Assembly: GCF_044324875.1 (NCBI RefSeq) | Contig: NZ_CP172185.1 | Source: Escherichia coli | GTDB taxonomy: Bacteria > Pseudomonadota > Gammaproteobacteria > Enterobacterales > Enterobacteriaceae | Reading direction: 5' to 3' (one strand) | Length of the DNA: 64,000 bases | Shown here: positions 3,210 through 62,216 of the stretch, in pieces | Layout: each line of letters starts with the position of its first letter | Numbering within the stretch: position 1 is the stretch's first letter | The notes under the pieces: generated by a model | What the model was told of the DNA's origin: nothing | The model's database searches: none | The model's input: the letters and a program-made list of their open reading frames with translations, nothing else | Position numbers and translations under genes: made by a program

Positions 3210-3413
3210 TTAGTAATTCACCTGGGATGGACCATCGCCAGTGGCGCGGTCGTTTTTATCCGGCACTGTGGATTGCGTTTGCGTCTCTACCGGTTTGGTC
3301 GGCGGTGGTGCGTTTTTATCTGCAGGCGGGAAATAGAGCGGACCTTTCAGACCGCAGCCCGTCAGGCTGAAGAGAGTAAGTAATACAGTGAGTGCCTTAA
3401 ACACGTTTTTCAT
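3210..3413 (-). CDS. yifL: Small lipoprotein YifL (LptM)
   Basis: 67-aa ORF with lipobox LTGC and Pro-rich tail; immediately upstream of dapF as in E. coli. Confidence 0.9.
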   Translation of the reverse strand: MKNVFKALTVLLTLFSLTGCGLKGPLYFPPADKNAPPPTKPVETQTQSTVPDKNDRATGDGPSQVNY

Positions 3414-3490
3414 TATGGATTGCCTGTAAAGTTCATCGCTTTCTGCTTTCTATCATCGCAGGAGAAGGCGTAAAAGCAAGCGTTTAGCGA

Positions 3491-3670
3491 CTCTTTATGA
3501 AGTCTGAAAAGTGAGGAAATGCTGCGAGTATAACGCTTACACGTGGCGATTTATGTTTTGCTGGTAGTTTCGTGATCAACACCTCGTGCCAGGATGGCTT
3601 TATGCACTATCGCAATGTGGTTTGTTTGTTGTCTTGTTCGTTGTTTTTATCGTCGGCATGGGGCTTTTAA
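3491..3670 (+). repeat. Copy 1 of conserved 5' leader module of the islet paralogs (decayed)
   Basis: About 175 bp alignable by eye to 4579-4760 and in part to 7455-7565; contains AGGA RBS and ATG. Confidence 0.7.
3602..3670 (+). pseudogene. Truncated signal-peptide remnant of an islet paralog
   Basis: 22-codon frame MHYRNVVCLLSCSLFLSSAWGF-stop; same signal peptide as the ORFs at 4688 and 7498 but the Cys after AWG is replaced by Phe and followed by TAA. Confidence 0.5.
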
Positions 3671-3761
3671 AAGAGTGGCGCACCATGCAATTTCGTTGTC
3701 TGACCTTAGTCGCCAGTGACATACAGCTTTGCCAACCTGGTGATAAGAGGGAAAAAATCTG

Positions 3762-4316
3762 ATGGGGCTATTTACCCAACTGGAAAAATTTGACCAAAAG
3801 CTTACGCGCGGTTATGCCCGCTGGGGGCGCTGGGTATGGCGGACGTTAATTGTCGTTCCAATACTGGTCGTATTGTGGAATATAGGGCAGGCAGTATGGG
3901 GAGGACCAAGAGGTGGAGTGATTCTGGAAATCCACAGTGAAATTGACCGCCCGATACTGGGATTCAGTGTTAACGGCGTGGCGGGCGCGAATGCTTTTGC
4001 GAATGGTGGCGGTTCAATCACCTGTTGCGGTGATGTCAGTGGGGATACGGCAGAGGTTATCTGGACATTAAGTACTACTCGTACACAGTATAATGCTGGA
4101 ATGCGTCTGGAGAAACGCAATATGACGTTACCTCTCCCAAAAAGAGAATGGGGAGAAAATTATCTGCACGTGCATTTTATGCCTGGCGATAAAGTGTTGC
4201 TGGGGTGGAGTAAAGATTCTTTTTCTCCGTATGAAGATCTTCACAACGGGGGGTACAAGACCCGCGTTCGGCAGGATGTGAAAGATAAACTTTATGGCAC
4301 AGGAAAAATGAATTGA
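3762..4316 (+). CDS. Hypothetical membrane-anchored protein (184 aa)
   Basis: ORF with purine-rich RBS upstream; N-terminal hydrophobic segment TLIVVPILVVLWNIGQAVW; Gly-rich region and CC dipeptide; no recognised family. Confidence 0.55.
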   Translation: MGLFTQLEKFDQKLTRGYARWGRWVWRTLIVVPILVVLWNIGQAVWGGPRGGVILEIHSEIDRPILGFSVNGVAGANAFANGGGSITCCGDVSGDTAEVIWTLSTTRTQYNAGMRLEKRNMTLPLPKREWGENYLHVHFMPGDKVLLGWSKDSFSPYEDLHNGGYKTRVRQDVKDKLYGTGKMN

Positions 4317-4578
4317 TAGATTTCTATAAAAATCACGTTCGGCAGAAAGCGTAATAATGTGGCGAATGTTAGATACCCGTGGTGGAACCTGGGTACAACT
4401 CGTGAAAGACAATAAAGAAGGCAACGGGGGGCGGAATCCCACCTTGCCTCCCTTCCAGGGGTCAATCCGGAATATTTTTATGCTATTAGCCGTACTATGG
4501 GGCAGTTCCGGGATTGTATTTATATCGTGAATGAAAACATCACCTTTATTCCAGCAACTATCAGAAAATAGCGATGAC

Positions 4579-4760
4579 CTTTATGGATTCTGAAAAGTGA
4601 CGATTTGCTGCGAGAGTTACGCTTACTTGTGAGGATTTATGTTCTGCTGGTAGTTTCGTGATCGGCACCTCACGCCAGGATGGCTTTATGCACTTTCGCA
4701 ATGTGGTTTGTTTGTTGTCTTGTTCGTTGTTCTTATCGCCTGCCTGGGGATGTAAGCTTT
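4579..4760 (+). repeat. Copy 2 of conserved 5' leader module
   Basis: Near-identical to 3491-3670; spans upstream leader, RBS and signal-peptide codons of the ORF starting at 4688. Confidence 0.7.
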
Positions 4761-6130
4761 CATCTGTGGATCCCAATGAGTATCAGCAACAGGGAAAAGG
4801 CGTGGTGTACCTGCGCCCTAATCAAAACACCAATCTTTCGCTACCGAACGTGAATTACAAGCGCCTGCGTCGGTTGGCGAATTTGTTAATTGACCCAGCG
4901 ACACTGGAAGATTGGGAGGAAATACCGCCGTTAACCGATCTGTCTACTGATTATGATGTGAGGGGCGCAAATGCCTGGTATCCTCATTACTCCTGGCATA
5001 GCGATGGTCGCTATATTATTTACGCTGGCAAGATAGTGCAAAATCCTGCGGGTGCACCGCCGGTTGACGTCACGTCATTCAAGGCTTGGGGCGATTTTGC
5101 CGCTGATAAAAATAGCCTCTATTTCAGAGGCGAACGCACGGATGACAATGGTGGTGACAAGCCTTTAGATAGCAAAACACTGCATCAGATGAATTTACCG
5201 CCGCCATGGGAACCTGACGTCCTCGGGCTGATATTGCGTGATGCTAACTTCCTGTATATCAACGGGCATCGTATTGCTGAGACCAATAGTTTCCGCGTGC
5301 TGGCGCAAAAGTCCTGGGATAAGCACGGAAAATTTTCCATGAAGTTTAGCTGCATTCGCAAACCATTCGGCCCCTGGGATACGCTGGCTCGTACACAGAC
5401 GAAGATTATGCTCAACGGCGAACAACTGGATGCCGACCCGGATACCTTCACCGTTGTGCGCTGGATACCTGAAGCATTAATAAGCTGGCGAGATAAAAAC
5501 GGCTTTCACCGAAAGGTACTGGATCAATATGCCCTGGACAGCAATGAGGAATATAGCTGCGGTAGTTTCAATGTAAAGGAACACCGCGTCACCTGGCGTA
5601 GTAGCTTCCCGGGTAAGGGAGCAGAATGCCAACAAGAAGAGATTCCCGGCCTCGATCCTGAACAGTTTCACCCAATTAGCGATGCTGTCGCGCAATATCA
5701 GGACAAGCTGTACGTCATCGAAACAACGCCATTTGACGAGCTCAAGCTGAATATTGTTACGCTTGATGACCCGAAACTGATTATTAATAAGCGCTTCAAC
5801 GCCGGGAAGCGTCACGGTTACTTGCTCACAAGAAAGGGAGACGAGTTTGGGGATTCTGGTTTACAGGTGTTTGAATCCGCCGGGCCGCTCATTTTATTTG
5901 ATAACCACATCCCCAGCGAACGGGAAGCGCATCAGGTTAGCAGCAACCCTTATATCCAAAAATGGTTAGCCCGCGACGACAAATATGTTTATCGCTTCGA
6001 TGGCATGCAGCTCTGGCGCTATCACACCGCAGATCCCCGAGCCGTGCGCGTCGTGAACGATCAACTCGATGACAAAATTAACGGTGATGGCGAGTTTATA
6101 CCCACTCCGCGCGATGAGGCTAAAAAATGA
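4688..6130 (+). CDS. Secreted or lipoprotein-like repeat protein, paralog 1 (DKNYY-like repeats)
   Basis: Track ORF 4658-6130 (GTG); the conserved ATG at 4688 with AGGA RBS is preferred; signal peptide MHFRNVVCLLSCSLFLSPAWG-C; repeated units with D-x-x-[ST]-F and D-[KDN]-x-[YL]-[VL]-Y motifs. Confidence 0.75.
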   Translation: MHFRNVVCLLSCSLFLSPAWGCKLSSVDPNEYQQQGKGVVYLRPNQNTNLSLPNVNYKRLRRLANLLIDPATLEDWEEIPPLTDLSTDYDVRGANAWYPHYSWHSDGRYIIYAGKIVQNPAGAPPVDVTSFKAWGDFAADKNSLYFRGERTDDNGGDKPLDSKTLHQMNLPPPWEPDVLGLILRDANFLYINGHRIAETNSFRVLAQKSWDKHGKFSMKFSCIRKPFGPWDTLARTQTKIMLNGEQLDADPDTFTVVRWIPEALISWRDKNGFHRKVLDQYALDSNEEYSCGSFNVKEHRVTWRSSFPGKGAECQQEEIPGLDPEQFHPISDAVAQYQDKLYVIETTPFDELKLNIVTLDDPKLIINKRFNAGKRHGYLLTRKGDEFGDSGLQVFESAGPLILFDNHIPSEREAHQVSSNPYIQKWLARDDKYVYRFDGMQLWRYHTADPRAVRVVNDQLDDKINGDGEFIPTPRDEAKK

Positions 6131-7437
6131 AAGTGATGAAAAAAAGTATCTCACTGGCGCTCATCCTGTTGGGGTACACGGTGGCAATTCCGGCCGTCCA
6201 GGCTGAAGGGTACGAATACTACTCTAACCAGGGAGCCCTGGTTTACGGTTCAAACTTCGGGGGACAAAAGAAAATCATTGCCAAGTTTACGGGAATTAAC
6301 AGACGCGATTTGTACCCTGTGGAAAATATCTCTGGCGAGCAGGAACGATATATTATCGAAGATGAAGTCACCACAATTAAAGAGGAGTACCACTGGATAA
6401 CGGACGGTCACGTCATTCTCTGGCGAGGGAAAATCGTGAGTAATCCTCCCGGTACGCCAATGGTCGATGTTGCCAGCTTTAAGGCTCTGGGCCGCTTCGC
6501 CGTCGATAAATACAGTCTCTATTTTGACGGTCAGCGCACCGAAAGCAATAGCGGTGCTTCGAAGGTGGACCTGGCAACCCTAAAAGCTATCGAAGATAAC
6601 AGCAGCACGCTGGTTGACCGACATAACCTTTATTTATTGGGACGCAGGCAGGCCAGTAGCGACGATTTCAGCGTACTACAAAGTAAATTGTGGGGGGATA
6701 TCGAGCGGTTCCGCCCACGCAATGAAGGGGCTACCTCCCGCGACCTGCTTATTCGTCATCGCCAGGATGTGTTTCTCAATGGTCAGCGCATTGCAGACGT
6801 TGATGCTGACACCTTTCACATCATTCGATGGATCCCCAATTCATTATTGGTCTACCGCGACAAACATGGTGAGCACCGTTACGCCTATGGCAACCCGGCC
6901 GGAAAAATGGCAACGACCGATGATGCGAATTCGTTTGAAATCGGTGAAAAAACCGTCCGCTGGCGCAGGCAACTCGCGCGGGATGACGCCTGGCCCACGC
7001 AACTCTCGTGGGATGTCATATGGGGGGCCTGGCAGGATATTCCCAATGTTGATCCGGAACAGTTCCATCTGATCACTGACCGCATCGCGCAGTATCAGGA
7101 TCGTCTGTATATCATCAAACTGTCGCCAGTTGGCGAAGACCAGCTTAACGTTATCACCCTGGATACCCCTGATTTAGTGGTTGATCACGTCTTCAATGGT
7201 GGGAAAAAGCACATTTATATTATCAAGGACAGAGCGTGGGTGCAGGATGTTCATGTGATTGCTACCCACGGTCCACTCACCATGGCTGAGAGTTTCGCCT
7301 GGGACGATCGCTATGTATATGCCTGGCGGGGCCAGCGACCTTCCAGAACTGAATCGCCATGTCCGGAGCAAACCGTTGAGCAGGATGATGGCATAGTCAT
7401 TAAGACCGAAGCATCAGAGTGCCACCGCACGCCGTAA
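6127..7437 (+). CDS. Secreted repeat protein, paralog 2 (DKNYY-like repeats)
   Basis: 436-aa ORF; start ATG overlaps the stop of the upstream paralog (ATGA); classical Sec signal MKVMKKSISLALILLGYTVAIPAVQA; repeat motifs VDVASF, DKYSLYF, DDRYVY; Cys-containing C-terminal tail. Confidence 0.75.
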   Translation: MKVMKKSISLALILLGYTVAIPAVQAEGYEYYSNQGALVYGSNFGGQKKIIAKFTGINRRDLYPVENISGEQERYIIEDEVTTIKEEYHWITDGHVILWRGKIVSNPPGTPMVDVASFKALGRFAVDKYSLYFDGQRTESNSGASKVDLATLKAIEDNSSTLVDRHNLYLLGRRQASSDDFSVLQSKLWGDIERFRPRNEGATSRDLLIRHRQDVFLNGQRIADVDADTFHIIRWIPNSLLVYRDKHGEHRYAYGNPAGKMATTDDANSFEIGEKTVRWRRQLARDDAWPTQLSWDVIWGAWQDIPNVDPEQFHLITDRIAQYQDRLYIIKLSPVGEDQLNVITLDTPDLVVDHVFNGGKKHIYIIKDRAWVQDVHVIATHGPLTMAESFAWDDRYVYAWRGQRPSRTESPCPEQTVEQDDGIVIKTEASECHRTP

Positions 7438-7454
7438 AATGGGTCATTATTTTT

Positions 7455-7565
7455 AACGGGTAGTTTCATGATCAACACCTCGCGCCAGGATGGCTTTATG
7501 CACTATCGCAATGTGGTTTGTTTGTTGTCTTGTTCATTGTTTTTATCGTCGGCATGGGGATGTCG
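7455..7565 (+). repeat. Copy 3 of conserved 5' leader module
   Basis: About 110 bp matching the 3' part of copies 1 and 2 (RBS plus signal-peptide codons). Confidence 0.7.
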
Positions 7566-9525
7566 GCTTTCCGCGCCTGAACATAATATTTACCAGAAAC
7601 AGGGAAAAGGCGTGGTATACCTGCGCCCTTATAAAGAAACAAATCTTTCTCTTCCTGACGTGAATTACAAAAGTTTGCGCCGTTTACCCAATTTATTAAT
7701 AGACCCGACAACACTAGACGAATGGGATAAAGAACCGCCTCTGACTGATTTGACAACCGACTACCTCTATGAGGGCGCACAGGCCTGGTATCCTCATTAT
7801 TCCTGGCATAGCGATGGTCGCAATATCCTCTACGCGGGTGAAGTTGTGCAAAACCCTCCCGGCACACCTCCCGTCGATGTCGCCTCGTTCAAGGCATGGG
7901 GTGATTTTGCCGCAGATAAACACAGTCTCTATTTTGAAGGCAAGCGCACCGATGACAATGGCGGAGAAAATAGTCTAGATATCAAAACGCTGCATCAGGT
8001 GAAATTCCGTTCCCCCTGGAAACCTGACTTACTGGGGCTGATATTACGTGACGCTAATTTCTTGTATATCAATGGGCATCGCCTCGCTGACCCCGAGAGT
8101 TTCCGTGTGCTGGCGCAAAAGTCCTGGGATCGGCGAGGAAAGTTTTCCGCCGAGTTTAACCCCTGCGTTGCCGTACCATTTGGCCCCTGGGATACGTTAG
8201 CCCGTACACGGACCAAAATCATAATCAATGGCGAACAGCTTACAGCCGACCCAGAGACATTTACTGTCGTGCGCTGGATGCCCAGTTCGTTATTAACCTG
8301 GCGTGATAAAAACGGGCTGCAGCGTAAAGTGCTGAATCAGGGAAATCTGGACAAAGATAGGGCAAATAGCTGTGCAACGTTCAATTTACAGGAACACTTT
8401 GTTTCATGGCGCAAAGGGCCAGAATGTCAGCAAGAAGTCCTACCCGGCCTCGATCCAGAACAATTTCACCCTCTTAGTAATACCGTTGCTCAGTATCAGG
8501 ACAAGCTGTACACCATCAAAAAAACGGAATTTGGCGAAAATAGGCTAGATATCGTCACACTGGATAATCCTGGTTTGGTGATAGATAAACGCTTTAACGC
8601 GGGAAGAACTCACGGCTATTTATTGACCAAATTACCAGCTGATGGTGAAGAAGAAGATGGCCTCCAGGTATTCGAGTCTTCCGGGCCGCTTATCCTGATG
8701 GATTATCGTGTTCCTGACGAGCATGAGGCTCACCTTAGCGATAGCCCCCATTACAAGAAATGGTATGCACACGACGATCGTTATGTTTACGCATTCGATG
8801 GCTCACAGCTTTGGCGCTACCCAACTCCCAATACCAAAGCCGTGCGGGTGAAATGGAAAACCAAAGATTCAGGATATGGCTATTGGGCAAACTACCGTAG
8901 TGGTGAGCTTGACGGCAGACTTCTTGAGGATGGTGCGTTTATTCCAACGGGAATCCCCTATAACTCATCCGTTAACATTGCTCAATATTCTGATGGCGAA
9001 GGCTCTTTTCTCGTCGGCGAAACCGATGTTAGCTGGCGTAAGCTTCGCTCTACAGACCAGCAATGGAGTCAATGGGAGAAACTCCCCGATATTGACCCGA
9101 AAGCATTTCATCCCATCACCGATCGTGTCGCGCAGTACAAAAATCATCTGTACATTGCGAAATTGTCTCCTTTTGGTGAAGACACCCTGGAGATAATAAC
9201 GCTCGACTCTTCTGCACCTTTCCTGAAACAACGAATTAACGCCGGGAAAGGCCATGGTTACTTTATGCGCTCTTCCCGTTTACGCGATGATATTCAAATT
9301 TTTGCTATTGATGGACCATTGAAAACCACCGAACGTTTCGCTTATGACAATCGCTATGTTTATACCTGGATCGGTAGCCAACTTTATCGAACCGCATCGC
9401 CCTGTCCGGCCAGGACACGTAATCTGGATCAGAACATGTTTTCATCCAATGATGACATCATCATCCTGAAGACGGAGGAAGAGTGCCACAAAACACCAGA
9501 CATTGAGCAAACTTTGAAGCCCTGA
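7498..9525 (+). CDS. Secreted or lipoprotein-like repeat protein, paralog 3 (long mosaic form)
   Basis: Track ORF 7468-9525; conserved ATG at 7498; N-terminal two thirds closely similar to paralog 1 at DNA level; C-terminal third resembles the C-terminus of paralog 2 including the SPCP...ECH[KR]TP tail. Confidence 0.75.
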   Translation: MHYRNVVCLLSCSLFLSSAWGCRLSAPEHNIYQKQGKGVVYLRPYKETNLSLPDVNYKSLRRLPNLLIDPTTLDEWDKEPPLTDLTTDYLYEGAQAWYPHYSWHSDGRNILYAGEVVQNPPGTPPVDVASFKAWGDFAADKHSLYFEGKRTDDNGGENSLDIKTLHQVKFRSPWKPDLLGLILRDANFLYINGHRLADPESFRVLAQKSWDRRGKFSAEFNPCVAVPFGPWDTLARTRTKIIINGEQLTADPETFTVVRWMPSSLLTWRDKNGLQRKVLNQGNLDKDRANSCATFNLQEHFVSWRKGPECQQEVLPGLDPEQFHPLSNTVAQYQDKLYTIKKTEFGENRLDIVTLDNPGLVIDKRFNAGRTHGYLLTKLPADGEEEDGLQVFESSGPLILMDYRVPDEHEAHLSDSPHYKKWYAHDDRYVYAFDGSQLWRYPTPNTKAVRVKWKTKDSGYGYWANYRSGELDGRLLEDGAFIPTGIPYNSSVNIAQYSDGEGSFLVGETDVSWRKLRSTDQQWSQWEKLPDIDPKAFHPITDRVAQYKNHLYIAKLSPFGEDTLEIITLDSSAPFLKQRINAGKGHGYFMRSSRLRDDIQIFAIDGPLKTTERFAYDNRYVYTWIGSQLYRTASPCPARTRNLDQNMFSSNDDIIILKTEEECHKTPDIEQTLKP

Positions 9526-9572
9526 CCCCATGCCGCTATACTGCCGCCATCACTTAAAAACAGGATACAACA

Positions 9573-9893
9573 ATGAACGACAGTGAATTTCATCGCCTGG
9601 CTGATCAACTGTGGCTGACCATTGAAGAGCGTCTGGACGACTGGGATGGCGATAGCGATATCGACTGCGAAATCAACGGCGGTGTACTGACCATTACCTT
9701 TGAAAACGGGAGCAAAATCATTATCAACCGTCAGGAACCGCTGCACCAGGTGTGGCTGGCAACCAAACAGGGCGGCTACCATTTTGATATGAAAGGCGAT
9801 GAGTGGATTTGCGATCGTAGCGGCGAAACCTTCTGGGATTTGCTGGAACAGGCGGCGACGCAGCAGGCGGGTGAAACAGTCAGTTTCCGCTAA
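9573..9893 (+). CDS. cyaY: Frataxin homolog CyaY
   Basis: 106-aa translation matches remembered E. coli CyaY ([14 protein letters not shown]...). Confidence 0.95.
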
Positions 9894-17004: not shown

Positions 17005-17604
17005 ATGTCAAAATTGCGCACGCCGTCCCGCTATCTTTTTCGCTTGCCATCGCATGAAATTACTCCTTTTCGGGCAACGCTCTTTTTAATCTTGTTGATA
17101 TGTGCCGCTCTGGCTGGCGTAAGTTGGCTGATTATTTCCTTTGTGCGTACGGGCAATACATTCATCTTCTGGTTAACACTTTTTATTGGGTATCTGATAG
17201 CTGCGGCGAAGCAGGAAAAAATCAAGCTCCTCAAGAAGTACCGAATCATGGCAGATAAACGTCGGGGACGCTCCATTTGCCAGTTCGCCCGCGAATTTGA
17301 CACCTACACCGTAGATACATGGGTGATTCGTGCGGTGTGGGATACCTTGCAAGGAAACGGTTATATCGATTACCCACTGCCACTGAAAGCCGATGATATA
17401 CTGGACGATGATCTGGATTTGGTGAGCGACGCAGTCGAGTTAGAAGAGCTGGTTGAAGATACCGCTGCTCGTTGCGGGCGCGATCTATGCGGAATAGAAG
17501 AGAATCCGTTTCTTCCCATCGTCACGGTAGGCTCTCTTGTAAGAGTGTTAAACGCGCAACCGATGACCCAGGAGCGACGTAACCAGTTCTTTATCCGGTC
17601 ATAA
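17005..17604 (+). CDS. Hypothetical protein (199 aa), predicted membrane-anchored with acidic C-terminal region
   Basis: Uninterrupted ORF with coding-like composition; hydrophobic N-terminal segments; acidic stretch DDILDDDLDLVSDAVELEELVED; weak RBS at 17005; stop abuts the glmZ terminator. Confidence 0.4.
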   Translation: MSKLRTPSRYLFRLPSHEITPFRATLFLILLICAALAGVSWLIISFVRTGNTFIFWLTLFIGYLIAAAKQEKIKLLKKYRIMADKRRGRSICQFAREFDTYTVDTWVIRAVWDTLQGNGYIDYPLPLKADDILDDDLDLVSDAVELEELVEDTAARCGRDLCGIEENPFLPIVTVGSLVRVLNAQPMTQERRNQFFIRS

Positions 17605-17809
17605 AAAAACGCCTGCTCTTATTACGGAGCAGGCGTTAAAACAGGTCTGTATGACAACAAGTGGGTGCTTCACTCAACGTTGTGTCCATGGTGTCTGATG
17701 AGGCATAAGCGACATCTGTCAGTGGACGATAAGCACCGTAAACGGCTCTGCGTCATTCCGGAGTTTATGAGGCACTAAGGCGAACATAAGAGATGGAATG
17801 AGCATCTAC
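17603..17809 (-). ncRNA. glmZ: GlmZ small regulatory RNA
   Basis: Minus-strand sequence matches remembered GlmZ from 5' GTAGATGCTCATTCCATCTC through the terminator GCCTGCTCCGTAATAAGAGCAGGCGTTTTTTT; lies between hemY and aslA. Confidence 0.8.
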
Positions 17810-21361: not shown

Positions 21362-21438
21362 TGGTCGGCGAGAGAGGATTCGAACCTCCGACCCACTGGT
21401 CCCAAACCAGTTGCGCTACCAAGCTGCGCTACTCGCCG
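21362..21438 (-). tRNA. proM: tRNA-Pro (anticodon UGG)
   Basis: Reverse complement gives CGGCGAGTAGCGCAGC...anticodon loop with TGG...TTCGAATCC...CCA. Confidence 0.9.
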
Positions 21439-21480
21439 AAATACTGCTTTTTGAATTTTTAGTTCAATTCTTTAAAGTCG

Positions 21481-21567
21481 TGGTGCGAGGGGGGGGACTT
21501 GAACCCCCACGTCCGTAAGGACACTAACACCTGAAGCTAGCGCGTCTACCAATTCCGCCACCTTCGC
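21481..21567 (-). tRNA. leuT: tRNA-Leu (anticodon CAG)
   Basis: 87-nt class II tRNA GCGAAGGTGGCGGAATTGGTAGACGCG...long variable arm...CCA. Confidence 0.9.
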
Positions 21568-21587
21568 ATTGTCACAACTTCTAATAA

Positions 21588-21664
21588 TGGGGTGGCTAAT
21601 GGGATTCGAACCCACGACAACTGGAATCACAATCCAGGGCTCTACCAACTGAGCTATAGCCACC
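21588..21664 (-). tRNA. hisR: tRNA-His (anticodon GUG)
   Basis: GGTGGCTATAGCTCAGTTGGTAGAGC...GTG anticodon...CCA with the extra 5' G. Confidence 0.9.
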
Positions 21665-21721
21665 ACTACAAATCTTGTTACGCGGTATTACTACCACCGC
21701 AGCTCAAGCGCCGGGACTAAA

Positions 21722-21798
<77 letters not shown>

Positions 21799-57075: not shown

Positions 57076-57083
57076 AATTAGGG

Positions 57084-57160
57084 TGGCGGAACGGACGGGA
57101 CTCGAACCCGCGACCCCCTGCGTGACAGGCAGGTATTCTAACCGACTGAACTACCGCTCC
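57084..57160 (-). tRNA. aspT: tRNA-Asp (anticodon GUC)
   Basis: GGAGCGGTAGTTCAGTCGGTTAGAATACCTGCCTGTCACGCAGG...CCGCCA. Confidence 0.9.
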
Positions 57161-57212
57161 ACCGAATTCTTTTACAACCACCGGTTTTATGACCGGCTTA
57201 CTGCTTAATTTG

Positions 57213-57332
57213 ATGCCTGGCAGTTCCCTACTCTCGCATGGGGAGACCCCACACTACCATCGGCGCTACGGCGTTTCACTTCTGAGTTCGGCATGGGGTC
57301 AGGTGGGACCACCGCGCTACGGCCGCCAGGCA
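57213..57332 (-). rRNA. rrfC: 5S ribosomal RNA
   Basis: 120-nt match to E. coli 5S rRNA (TGCCTGGCGGCCGTAGCGCGGTGG...GGAACTGCCAGGCAT). Confidence 0.95.
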
Positions 57333-57424
57333 AATTCTGTTTATCAGACCGCTTCTGCGTTCTGATTTAATCTGTATCAGGCTGAAAATCTTTCTCTCAT
57401 CCGCCAAAACATCTTCGGCGTTGT

Positions 57425-60329
<2,905 letters not shown>

Positions 60330-60513
60330 TCACAACCCGAAGATGTTTCACTTCAGAGTTGCGAAAATTTGAGAGACTCACGAACAACTTTCGTTGTTCA
60401 GTGTTTCAATTTTCAGCTTGATCCAGATTTTTAAAGAGCAAATATCTCAAACAAGACTTAACAGTCTGTTTTGAGATATTGAGGTCGGCGACTTTCACTC
60501 ACAAACCAGCAAG

Positions 60514-60589
60514 TGGCGTCCCCTAGGGGATTCGAACCCCTGTTACCGCCGTGAAAGGGCGGTGTCCTGGGCCTCTAGACGAAGGGGAC
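60514..60589 (-). tRNA. gltU: tRNA-Glu (anticodon UUC), 16S-23S spacer tRNA
   Basis: GTCCCCTTCGTCTAGAGGCCCAGGACACCGCCCTTTCACGGCGGTAACAGGGG...CGCCA. Confidence 0.9.
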
Positions 60590-60674
60590 GTATCAGTCTG
60601 CTTCGCAAGACGCCTTGCTTTTCACTTTCTATCAGACAATCTGTGTGAGCACTGCAAAGTACGCTTCTTTAAGG

Positions 60675-62216
<1,542 letters not shown>

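Follow-up and report, generated by a model that had tools for sequence, protein, structure and literature searches.

A variable lptM-cyaY locus of Escherichia coli with an orphan Tli1-like gene and tandem DKNYY-like paralogs

Genes and cassettes between lptM and cyaY

We analysed a 64,000-nt stretch of the Escherichia coli contig NZ_CP172185.1 (assembly GCF_044324875.1; 'the window', whose positions are used throughout) and, within it, the segment between lptM (yifL) and cyaY, where four open reading frames (ORFs), here named orf1 to orf4, all lie on the + strand. The first of these resembles genes for Tli1 immunity proteins and the other three are tandem DKNYY-like paralogs. Taking all the evidence together, the best explanation is probably that lptM-cyaY is an old, non-mobile and hypervariable locus of the Enterobacteriaceae, and that the segment is one rare allelic form of it. 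The data show its anatomy, paralogy, distribution, exchange between genera and rates of evolution directly; where the proteins are located and what they do is inferred.

The ORF coordinates given in the original prediction, which was made from the sequence alone, were confirmed both by the ORF listing and by RefSeq, which calls the same four coding sequences in a stretch of E. coli Ecol_316 that is 99.9% identical to the segment (Table 1). A plausible ribosome-binding site precedes each of the ORF starts, and the start of orf3 overlaps the stop of orf2 as ATGA. On the left flank dapF lies beside lptM. The G+C content of the segment is 0.45-0.53, against 0.54-0.58 in the left flank. The observation that no mobility gene or tRNA adjoins the genes also held, since the listing contains no insertion sequence (IS), transposase or integrase ORF inside the segment and there is no tRNA within 12 kb of it; the sole recombinase nearby is the housekeeping xerC, 1.7 kb away. 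A scan for promoters and terminators gave no signal beyond the shuffle expectation, and a promoter-like TTGAAG-17-TATACT ahead of cyaY (9514-9542) is a consensus match only.

For the paralogs we use the terms B-type for orf2, A-type for orf3 and BA for orf4. The unit that organizes the segment is a 171-nt leader repeat, D1, which is present in three copies, copy 1 being 87% identical to copy 2. D1 consists of ∼110 nt of upstream sequence, a ribosome-binding site and the signal-peptide codons of a B-type gene. Copy 1 ends in a 22-codon relic ORF (3602-3670, MHYRNVVCLLSCSLFLSSAWGF followed by a stop) directly ahead of a module homologous to type VI secretion system (T6SS) DNA that contains orf1, the tli1 module; the module was therefore spliced in after B-type signal-peptide codons. 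The segment can thus be laid out as leader-relic plus captured tli1 module, then leader-orf2-orf3, then leader-orf4.

Other E. coli carry other forms: tli1+B+A, a B pseudogene with A and no tli1, tli1+BA only, or IS elements with a fimbrial operon. From this anatomy the four-gene form looks like a leader-mediated join of the tli1+B+A and tli1+BA forms. In the mechanism we propose, recombination between leaders, between paralogs and between the flanking core genes would duplicate, fuse, delete and swap cassettes, and K-12 would have lost all of them except a stump. In E. coli SW070912 (L012:4403-9246) the B-type gene at the lptM-side junction is truncated, and after it come an IS3 transposase gene and a fimbrial chaperone-usher operon, which shows that unrelated accessory DNA is accepted here too.

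Table 1. Positions of the genes and other features in the window
Feature	Position	Strand	Description	Basis
lptM (yifL)	3210-3413	-	left conserved flank, divergent from the locus	ORF and RefSeq annotation of Ecol_316
Leader copy 1 (repeat D1)	3493-3663	+	5' untranslated region and signal-peptide coding of a B-type gene	repeat search, alignment
tli1 module, captured	3685-4283	+	homologous to E. coli T6SS cluster DNA	blastn, tblastx
orf1	3762-4316	+	184 aa, orphan Tli1-like (DUF3304)	Pfam, amino-acid identity
Spacer, tli1 module to leader copy 2	4317-4578		262 nt, no homology to tle1 or the rest of the T6SS cluster	
Leader copy 2 (D1)	4579-4749	+	upstream region, ribosome-binding site and signal-peptide coding of orf2	
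orf2	4688-6130	+	480 aa, B-type: DKNYY-like N domain and family-specific C domain	
orf3	6127-7437	+	436 aa, A-type paralog	PF13644 match
Leader copy 3 (shortened D1)	about 7447-7559	+	∼50 nt of upstream sequence and signal-peptide coding of orf4	
orf4	7498-9525	+	675 aa, in-frame B-A fusion	module identities
Right junction	9454-9572	+	last ∼70 nt of orf4 and intergenic region, retained in K-12	
cyaY	9573-9893	+	right conserved flank	ORF and RefSeq annotation of Ecol_316
Ordinary-chromosome RNA features	17603-17809, 21362-21798, 57000-62216	- (all)		

The spacer, which is unlike both the T6SS cluster and the leader repeat, holds a 57-codon ORF at 4357-4530. Elsewhere the window is ordinary E. 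coli chromosome, including the GlmZ small RNA, a Pro-Leu-His-Arg tRNA cluster and an rRNA operon with Glu, Asp and Trp tRNAs.

The orphan Tli1-like gene

The original prediction had left orf1 uninterpreted. Its product weakly matches the Pfam family DUF3304 (E = 5.8e-4, 20.7 bits) and shows 67% amino-acid identity over 174 residues to a protein that RefSeq calls 'DUF3304 domain-containing protein', whose gene lies between a DUF4123 adaptor gene and the gene of a Tle1 phospholipase effector; on this identity, orf1 is best read as a Tli1-like immunity gene that has become an orphan. This closest paralog belongs to an E. coli T6SS cluster with the order VgrG-DUF4123-DUF3304-Tle1, and the homologous DNA in the window covers the tail of the DUF4123 gene, the intergenic region and the DUF3304 gene. 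It is 75% identical over 560 nt by blastn (L008 9001-9551), while tblastx extends the match to its right-hand end. Neither method, applied against the T6SS cluster, found a tle1 remnant after orf1, and in the E. coli genome near-identical to the window the sole copy of orf1 is the one at this locus. The hydropathy profile gives an N-terminal hydrophobic anchor at residues about 27-45. Between E. coli alleles the ratio of non-synonymous to synonymous divergence (dN/dS) of orf1 is 0.11-0.19, indicating purifying selection.

DUF3304 proteins are validated immunity proteins of Tle1 effectors in several species (PMC13133936), and orphan immunity genes are an established concept, reviewed for E. coli (PMC6730261). 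We consider it likely that orf1 encodes an orphan Tle1-type immunity protein, placed in the inner membrane with a periplasmic domain, that would neutralize incoming Tle1-type lipases. In the 5,426 complete E. coli genomes on which all our prevalence counts are based, the orphan tli1 was present at 90% identity or more in 1,163 (21%) and the cluster tle1, at 99% or more, in 509, and the two types of tli1 share at most 73 genomes.

Several points weigh against this assignment. The Pfam match is a weak one, and the NCBIfam model Tli1a_fam scores orf1 at 19.4 bits against a cut-off of 110; judged by these sequence scores, orf1 is a relative of Tli1a and no equivalog. An identity of 67% does not guarantee cross-protection, and the near-exclusive distribution of orphan tli1 and tle1 could reflect phylogroup structure alone. 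In a PDB sequence search the one hit to orf1 was AcrH, at an E value (0.19) that is not meaningful.

The orf2-orf4 family and its possible roles

The original prediction had called three of the ORFs clear paralogs built of reiterated motifs, and both statements stood. By BLASTP, orf2 and orf4 are 65.5% identical over 490 aligned positions and orf3 is 35.7% identical to orf2 over 361 positions (E = 1e-64). orf4 comprises a complete B-type protein (residues 1-490) joined to an A-type C-terminal half (residues 491-675; nt 8968-9522), the latter being 42-52% identical to the C-terminal halves of A-type proteins compared with 36-37% for those of B-type proteins. Salmonella (670 aa), E. albertii and Pseudocitrobacter have proteins fused in the same way, and the fusion is therefore old. 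The motif D-x-x-[ST]-[FL] occurs 5-7 times per protein where 0.4-0.9 are expected, a count equalled in none of 2000 shuffles, and D-[KDN]-x-[YL]-[VL]-Y occurs 2-3 times, exceeding all or nearly all of 2000 shuffles. The residues of these motifs are invariant columns in a 33-sequence alignment of the family.

All three proteins begin with export signals. The N-terminus of orf3, MKVMKKSISLALILLGYTVAIPAVQA followed by E, is a signal peptidase I-type signal (AVQA/E), and the A-type proteins share a classical signal peptide start as well as a conserved C-terminal pair of cysteines (C412 and C432 in orf3). The signals of orf2 and orf4 end in LFLS[PS]AWG-C, with a cysteine conserved across genera, and UniProt labels relatives 'Lipoprotein'. 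The three products are most likely exported, and either periplasmic or lipid-anchored. The earlier description of them as secreted was overstated, since the sequence shows export signals, for the periplasm or for membrane anchoring, and not release from the cell.

The suggested resemblance to the DKNYY family (PF13644) was directly confirmed for one protein of the three. orf3 matches PF13644 over residues 113-247 (i-Evalue 1.4e-5, 26.1 bits) and is named 'DKNYY domain-containing protein' in RefSeq, whereas the model is not significant for orf2 (best i-Evalue 5.6) or orf4 (2.2). These two are tied to DKNYY because they are homologous to orf3 and because the family profile reaches PF13644 proteins: a search of 1.84 billion representatives with this profile gave 121 proteins at E ≤ 0.001, and among the distant matches with multiple stretches, 17 of the 18 scanned are PF13644 proteins. 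The DKNYY-like part of the family is confined to residues about 90-250, and the C-terminal half (DPEQF...AQYQD.LY...DDRYVY) is specific to this branch. These profile matches place orf2-orf4 in a small and divergent branch of DKNYY proteins, orf2 and orf4 being best seen as a sister branch. None of the three is matched by an NCBIfam model, the PADLOC defence-system models gave zero matches to all four proteins, and a PDB sequence search with the family profile returned no relatives. A full-text literature search returned no paper on the family or on the lptM-cyaY locus; 'PF13644' occurred in no paper and 'DKNYY' in one, unrelated.

The identified sources of the branch are Enterobacterales. A scan of 100,044 species, with one genome each, gave 11 family loci, of which 10 are in Escherichia, Citrobacter, Klebsiella spallanzanii, Leminorella and Pseudocitrobacter. 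The 11th is a 4 kb contig (JAIJJM010000270.1) of a metagenome-assembled genome labelled 'Collinsella', which resembles E. coli DNA and carries orf1 at 98% amino-acid identity together with B and A genes; mis-binning of E. coli DNA into an actinobacterial assembly is almost certainly the explanation. The family also occupies a second variable site, cycA-ytfE, where two tandem paralogs are found in some E. coli, E. albertii and E. whittamii. Those of E. coli CAVP773 (L017:5490-8173; 385 and 497 aa) align to the family profile in hhalign with E values of 1e-64 and 5e-88. Neither tli1 nor mobility genes were found at the cycA-ytfE site. Leminorella has two paralogs at hda-arsC, and Pseudocitrobacter has a further tandem pair whose flanks match none of the marker genes used.

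AlphaFold2 models of orf3 (predicted local distance difference test score, pLDDT, 80.9; predicted template modelling score, pTM, 0.72) and of orf4 (pLDDT 80.8, pTM 0.75) are all-beta and built of repeated short four-strand units. Foldseek searches of the PDB matched multi-propeller proteins with E values of at least 8.5e-6 but with a template modelling (TM) score of about 0.1, and the AFDB50 structural search matched only the orf2-orf4 family itself. The units of the two models have a weak propeller-like similarity; a closed propeller is not shown. The 33-sequence alignment contains no invariant His, Ser or Cys, and its invariant residues, found largely within the repeat motifs, are mostly aromatic, aliphatic, Gly or Asp. 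This pattern argues for a binding scaffold over an enzyme. Four core stretches hold most of the conservation; variation lies in the N-terminal region and in the loops, and it tracks low pLDDT.

The alleles are highly diverged. Genes at the same position across E. coli encode proteins with 65-69% identity for the B class and 56-58% for the A class, and in each class synonymous divergence (dS) exceeds 1.2 at a dN/dS of about 0.17-0.20. Close pairs give dN/dS values of 0.21-0.47, compared with 0.01-0.06 in the flanking genes, and the range over all comparisons is 0.15-0.47. Because these values are well below 1 and yet above those of the flanks, the genes are evolving fast under retained constraint, and so are not junk. 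Alleles can be mosaic: in one strain the B gene matches the 5' 600 nt of orf4 at 92-95% identity, beyond which the divergence is ∼36%. They have also been exchanged between genera. orf4 and its Pseudocitrobacter counterpart are 92% identical with a dS of 0.18, while dS is 0.94 for the flanking cyaA and 1.04 for dapF; the orf4 allele therefore moved between the genera long after they split.

None of the results links orf2-orf4 to a known activity. They are most likely diversified binding proteins of the cell envelope, without conserved catalytic residues. Being exported, scaffold-like, tandem, polymorphic and laterally exchanged, and lying beside a captured immunity gene, they fit binders of variable external partners, and we tentatively suggest that they might capture and blunt foreign proteins, for example the toxins of competitors or proteins of phages or hosts. 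Several points weigh against this account. No recognizable toxin or secretion system adjoins any family member examined, and Tle1, VgrG, Hcp and DUF4123 were not found in the 11 family loci scanned, whereas a true immunity family can usually be seen beside its cognate effector at some locus. Immunity proteins are also seldom as large as these, which have 436-675 aa. E. coli-type loci alone hold the tli1 module, whose presence may be incidental to the function of orf2-orf4. The promoter scan detected no promoter in the leaders. The lipoprotein status of orf2 and orf4, finally, is not established, since the sequence S-[PS]-A-W-G-C has a Trp at -2 that is atypical for the lipobox [LVI][ASTVI][GAS]C.

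Further candidates for a link to toxins were examined and set aside. Two hypothetical proteins encoded 3' of an SLT-domain gene in an E. coli T6SS cluster would, had they been family members, have made the family one of cognate immunity proteins, but hhalign gave them a probability below 1%. The neighbours of distant family members and of canonical DKNYY proteins included no consistent toxin or secretion gene. An Rhs cluster ∼4 kb away on the other strand at one of these loci was judged coincidental.

A bolder version of the protective role, which we regard as rather improbable, is that the A, B and BA proteins form an unrecognized class of envelope defence, in which large beta-repeat binders would neutralize toxins or block phage or host proteins. 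The incoming toxins would then be T6SS effectors and bacteriocins, the alleles would be trans-species polymorphisms held at the hotspots lptM-cyaY and cycA-ytfE and swapped by flank-mediated recombination, and the captured orphan tli1 would mark the locus as an immunity depot.

A surface or outer-membrane role seems about as likely as an immunity-like protective one, which makes it, too, a tentative proposal. According to it, orf2-orf4 would be variable surface or outer-membrane lipoproteins, adhesins or antigens, diversified under pressure from host immunity or phage, with tli1 as a chance passenger. A non-Asp residue at +2 directs a lipoprotein to the outer membrane under the Lol sorting rule, and the lipoprotein-like signals here have C-K or C-R, which predicts such sorting. 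The extreme allelic diversity with its raised dN/dS and the conserved scaffold with variable loops are also what a surface protein could show; some canonical DKNYY proteins carry S-layer homology cell-surface domains as fusions, and the paralogs at the variable cycA-ytfE locus occur without tli1. However, the A-type proteins carry ordinary signal peptidase I signals and no anchor, and Pfam and NCBIfam scans found no adhesin-like domains.

Occupancy and history of the site

Family DNA is detectable in 1,791 of the 5,426 complete genomes (33%). orf4 itself, at 90% identity or more, is present in 165 (3%), and the four-gene form, taken as at least 80% of the segment, in 52 (1%). In K-12 the lptM-cyaY junction is about 1 kb long. 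The K-12 sequence is 98% identical to the window up to position 3638 and continues with ∼200 nt of the 5' end of a B-type gene (81% identical to 4579-4844); homology then resumes at 9454 with the last ∼70 nt of orf4 and cyaY. RefSeq annotates this stump as a frameshifted, truncated DKNYY pseudogene. K-12 yzcX has been described as a transcriptionally overlapping neighbour of cyaY, among membrane-protein genes (PMC12288877, PMC7414163); it may be the relic.

The same site is occupied in other genera, by BA and a 129-aa membrane protein in Salmonella, four tandem paralogs in K. spallanzanii, B+A in Citrobacter sp., B+A+BA in Escherichia sp. MOD1, and BA in both Pseudocitrobacter and E. albertii. 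The K-12 stump and the occupied sites in other genera together mean that differential loss and allele replacement, and not insertion, produced the present distribution.

The additional genes at some of these sites are of separate interest. The 129-aa membrane protein of Salmonella enterica (L003:11992-12381), which has a weak match to DUF3021, is encoded between the BA gene and cyaY; the window lacks it. A review (PMC8264917) states that free intracellular iron falls when stm3944 is overexpressed; stm3944 might be this ORF, but no correspondence to anything in the window could be shown. In K. spallanzanii (L006:14108-20772) five extra genes lie between the four paralogs and cyaY, encoding a GntR/aminotransferase regulator, an amidohydrolase and two major facilitator superfamily transporters, with one small ORF.

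The flanks of the segment are 1-4% divergent from K-12, which is ordinary, and the divergence is higher, at 10%, solely in the 300 nt nearest the cyaY junction. For cyaY, dS is 0.26 against K-12 and 0.12-0.30 against other E. coli, values that come from a small sample of 106 codons. The raised divergence at this junction may be linked to the old polymorphism. Hitch-hiking of flanking divergence was also considered, and from flanks with so short a raised stretch no conclusion was drawn.

The original prediction had placed an accessory islet between genes that are neighbours in K-12. Accessory the segment is, given its rarity among complete genomes and the ∼1 kb junction of K-12, but the insertion it implied did not survive, since the K-12 site holds a family relic and other genera hold family genes there. 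That the segment is a recently inserted genomic islet, foreign DNA between adjacent core genes, is improbable. It would account for the G+C content, which is below that of the left flank, for the scarcity of the full form, and for the movement of orf4 between genera at a dS of 0.18 when the flanks stand at about 1.0. However, family genes hold the same site in at least six genera, with Salmonella, K. spallanzanii, Citrobacter, Pseudocitrobacter and E. albertii among the carriers, K-12 and most E. coli carry a family-gene relic and no empty site, and the allele classes within E. coli differ by a dS above 1.2. Genomic islands are recognized by an integrase or transposase, by a tRNA or direct repeats at the borders and by relatives with an empty site; none of these was found, nor was an IS. 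Matches to the family in plasmid and phage collections consist of megabase-size records filed as plasmids, a Salmonella genome contig, unannotated records of 1-4 kb and, for the rest, fragments beside a DUF3021 gene in two Salmonella records (27% of the query), and they are not good evidence of mobility. It is more improbable still, to the point that we give it very little weight, that orf2-orf4 are decaying, functionless remnants at an eroding locus, for although most E. coli have lost them and some strains hold frameshifted or stop-containing copies and others IS insertions, the three ORFs of the window are intact over 436-675 codons, dN/dS stays well below 1 in every comparison, orf4 is 92% identical to the Pseudocitrobacter copy and both AlphaFold2 models are confident.

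RefSeq and UniProt already list genes of the orf1-orf4 types, under the names 'DKNYY family', 'DUF3304' or 'Lipoprotein'. What is new is the identification of orf1, the anatomy of the cassettes, the K-12 relic and the picture of an old, trans-generic and recombining locus. What passes for junk between yifL/lptM and cyaY in K-12 is a stump left by a gene family still present, in very different alleles, in about a third of E. coli strains. Roughly a fifth of E. coli genomes carry the orphan Tli1-like gene, about double the number with the matching Tle1 weapon, and if protective the gene would matter for which strain wins a type VI contest in the gut. Their export signals, fast evolution and mosaic alleles, together with the transfer between genera, make orf2-orf4 good candidates for interactions at the envelope, and since carrier strains and natural null strains such as K-12 both exist, their function is directly testable. 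Were the defence proposal true, DKNYY-like proteins would be a new class of envelope defence protein. None of this overturns current understanding.

Among known systems, orf1 shares its weak DUF3304 match with the Tli1 proteins of P. aeruginosa (Tli1a), B. thailandensis, K. pneumoniae and V. cholerae, but it is an orphan, with no effector, VgrG or adaptor nearby. P. aeruginosa Tli1a is described with a lipoprotein signal, in place of which orf1 has a transmembrane-like N-terminal anchor. With PF13644 proteins orf2-orf4 share the reiterated ∼40-residue motif D-x-x-[ST]-F ... D-K-x-x-[LV]-Y-[FY]-x-G, and they differ in their branch-specific C-terminal half and in the failure of orf2 and orf4 to match the Pfam model alone. 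Beta-propeller proteins (WD40-type, TolB-like) resemble the predicted structures in their all-beta, repeated four-stranded units, and propellers are the best structural matches. The closest parallel in organization is with orphan immunity arrays, the auxiliary clusters of V. cholerae and the acquired interbacterial defence clusters of Bacteroidales. The array in the window lies outside T6SS clusters and lacks mobile-element genes, and only orf1 is homologous to an effector-adjacent gene, no partner having been found for orf2-orf4. It is like them in that orf1 is detached from its effector and the exported genes are tandem and polymorphic, and in that each unit bears a conserved 5' segment able to mediate recombination.

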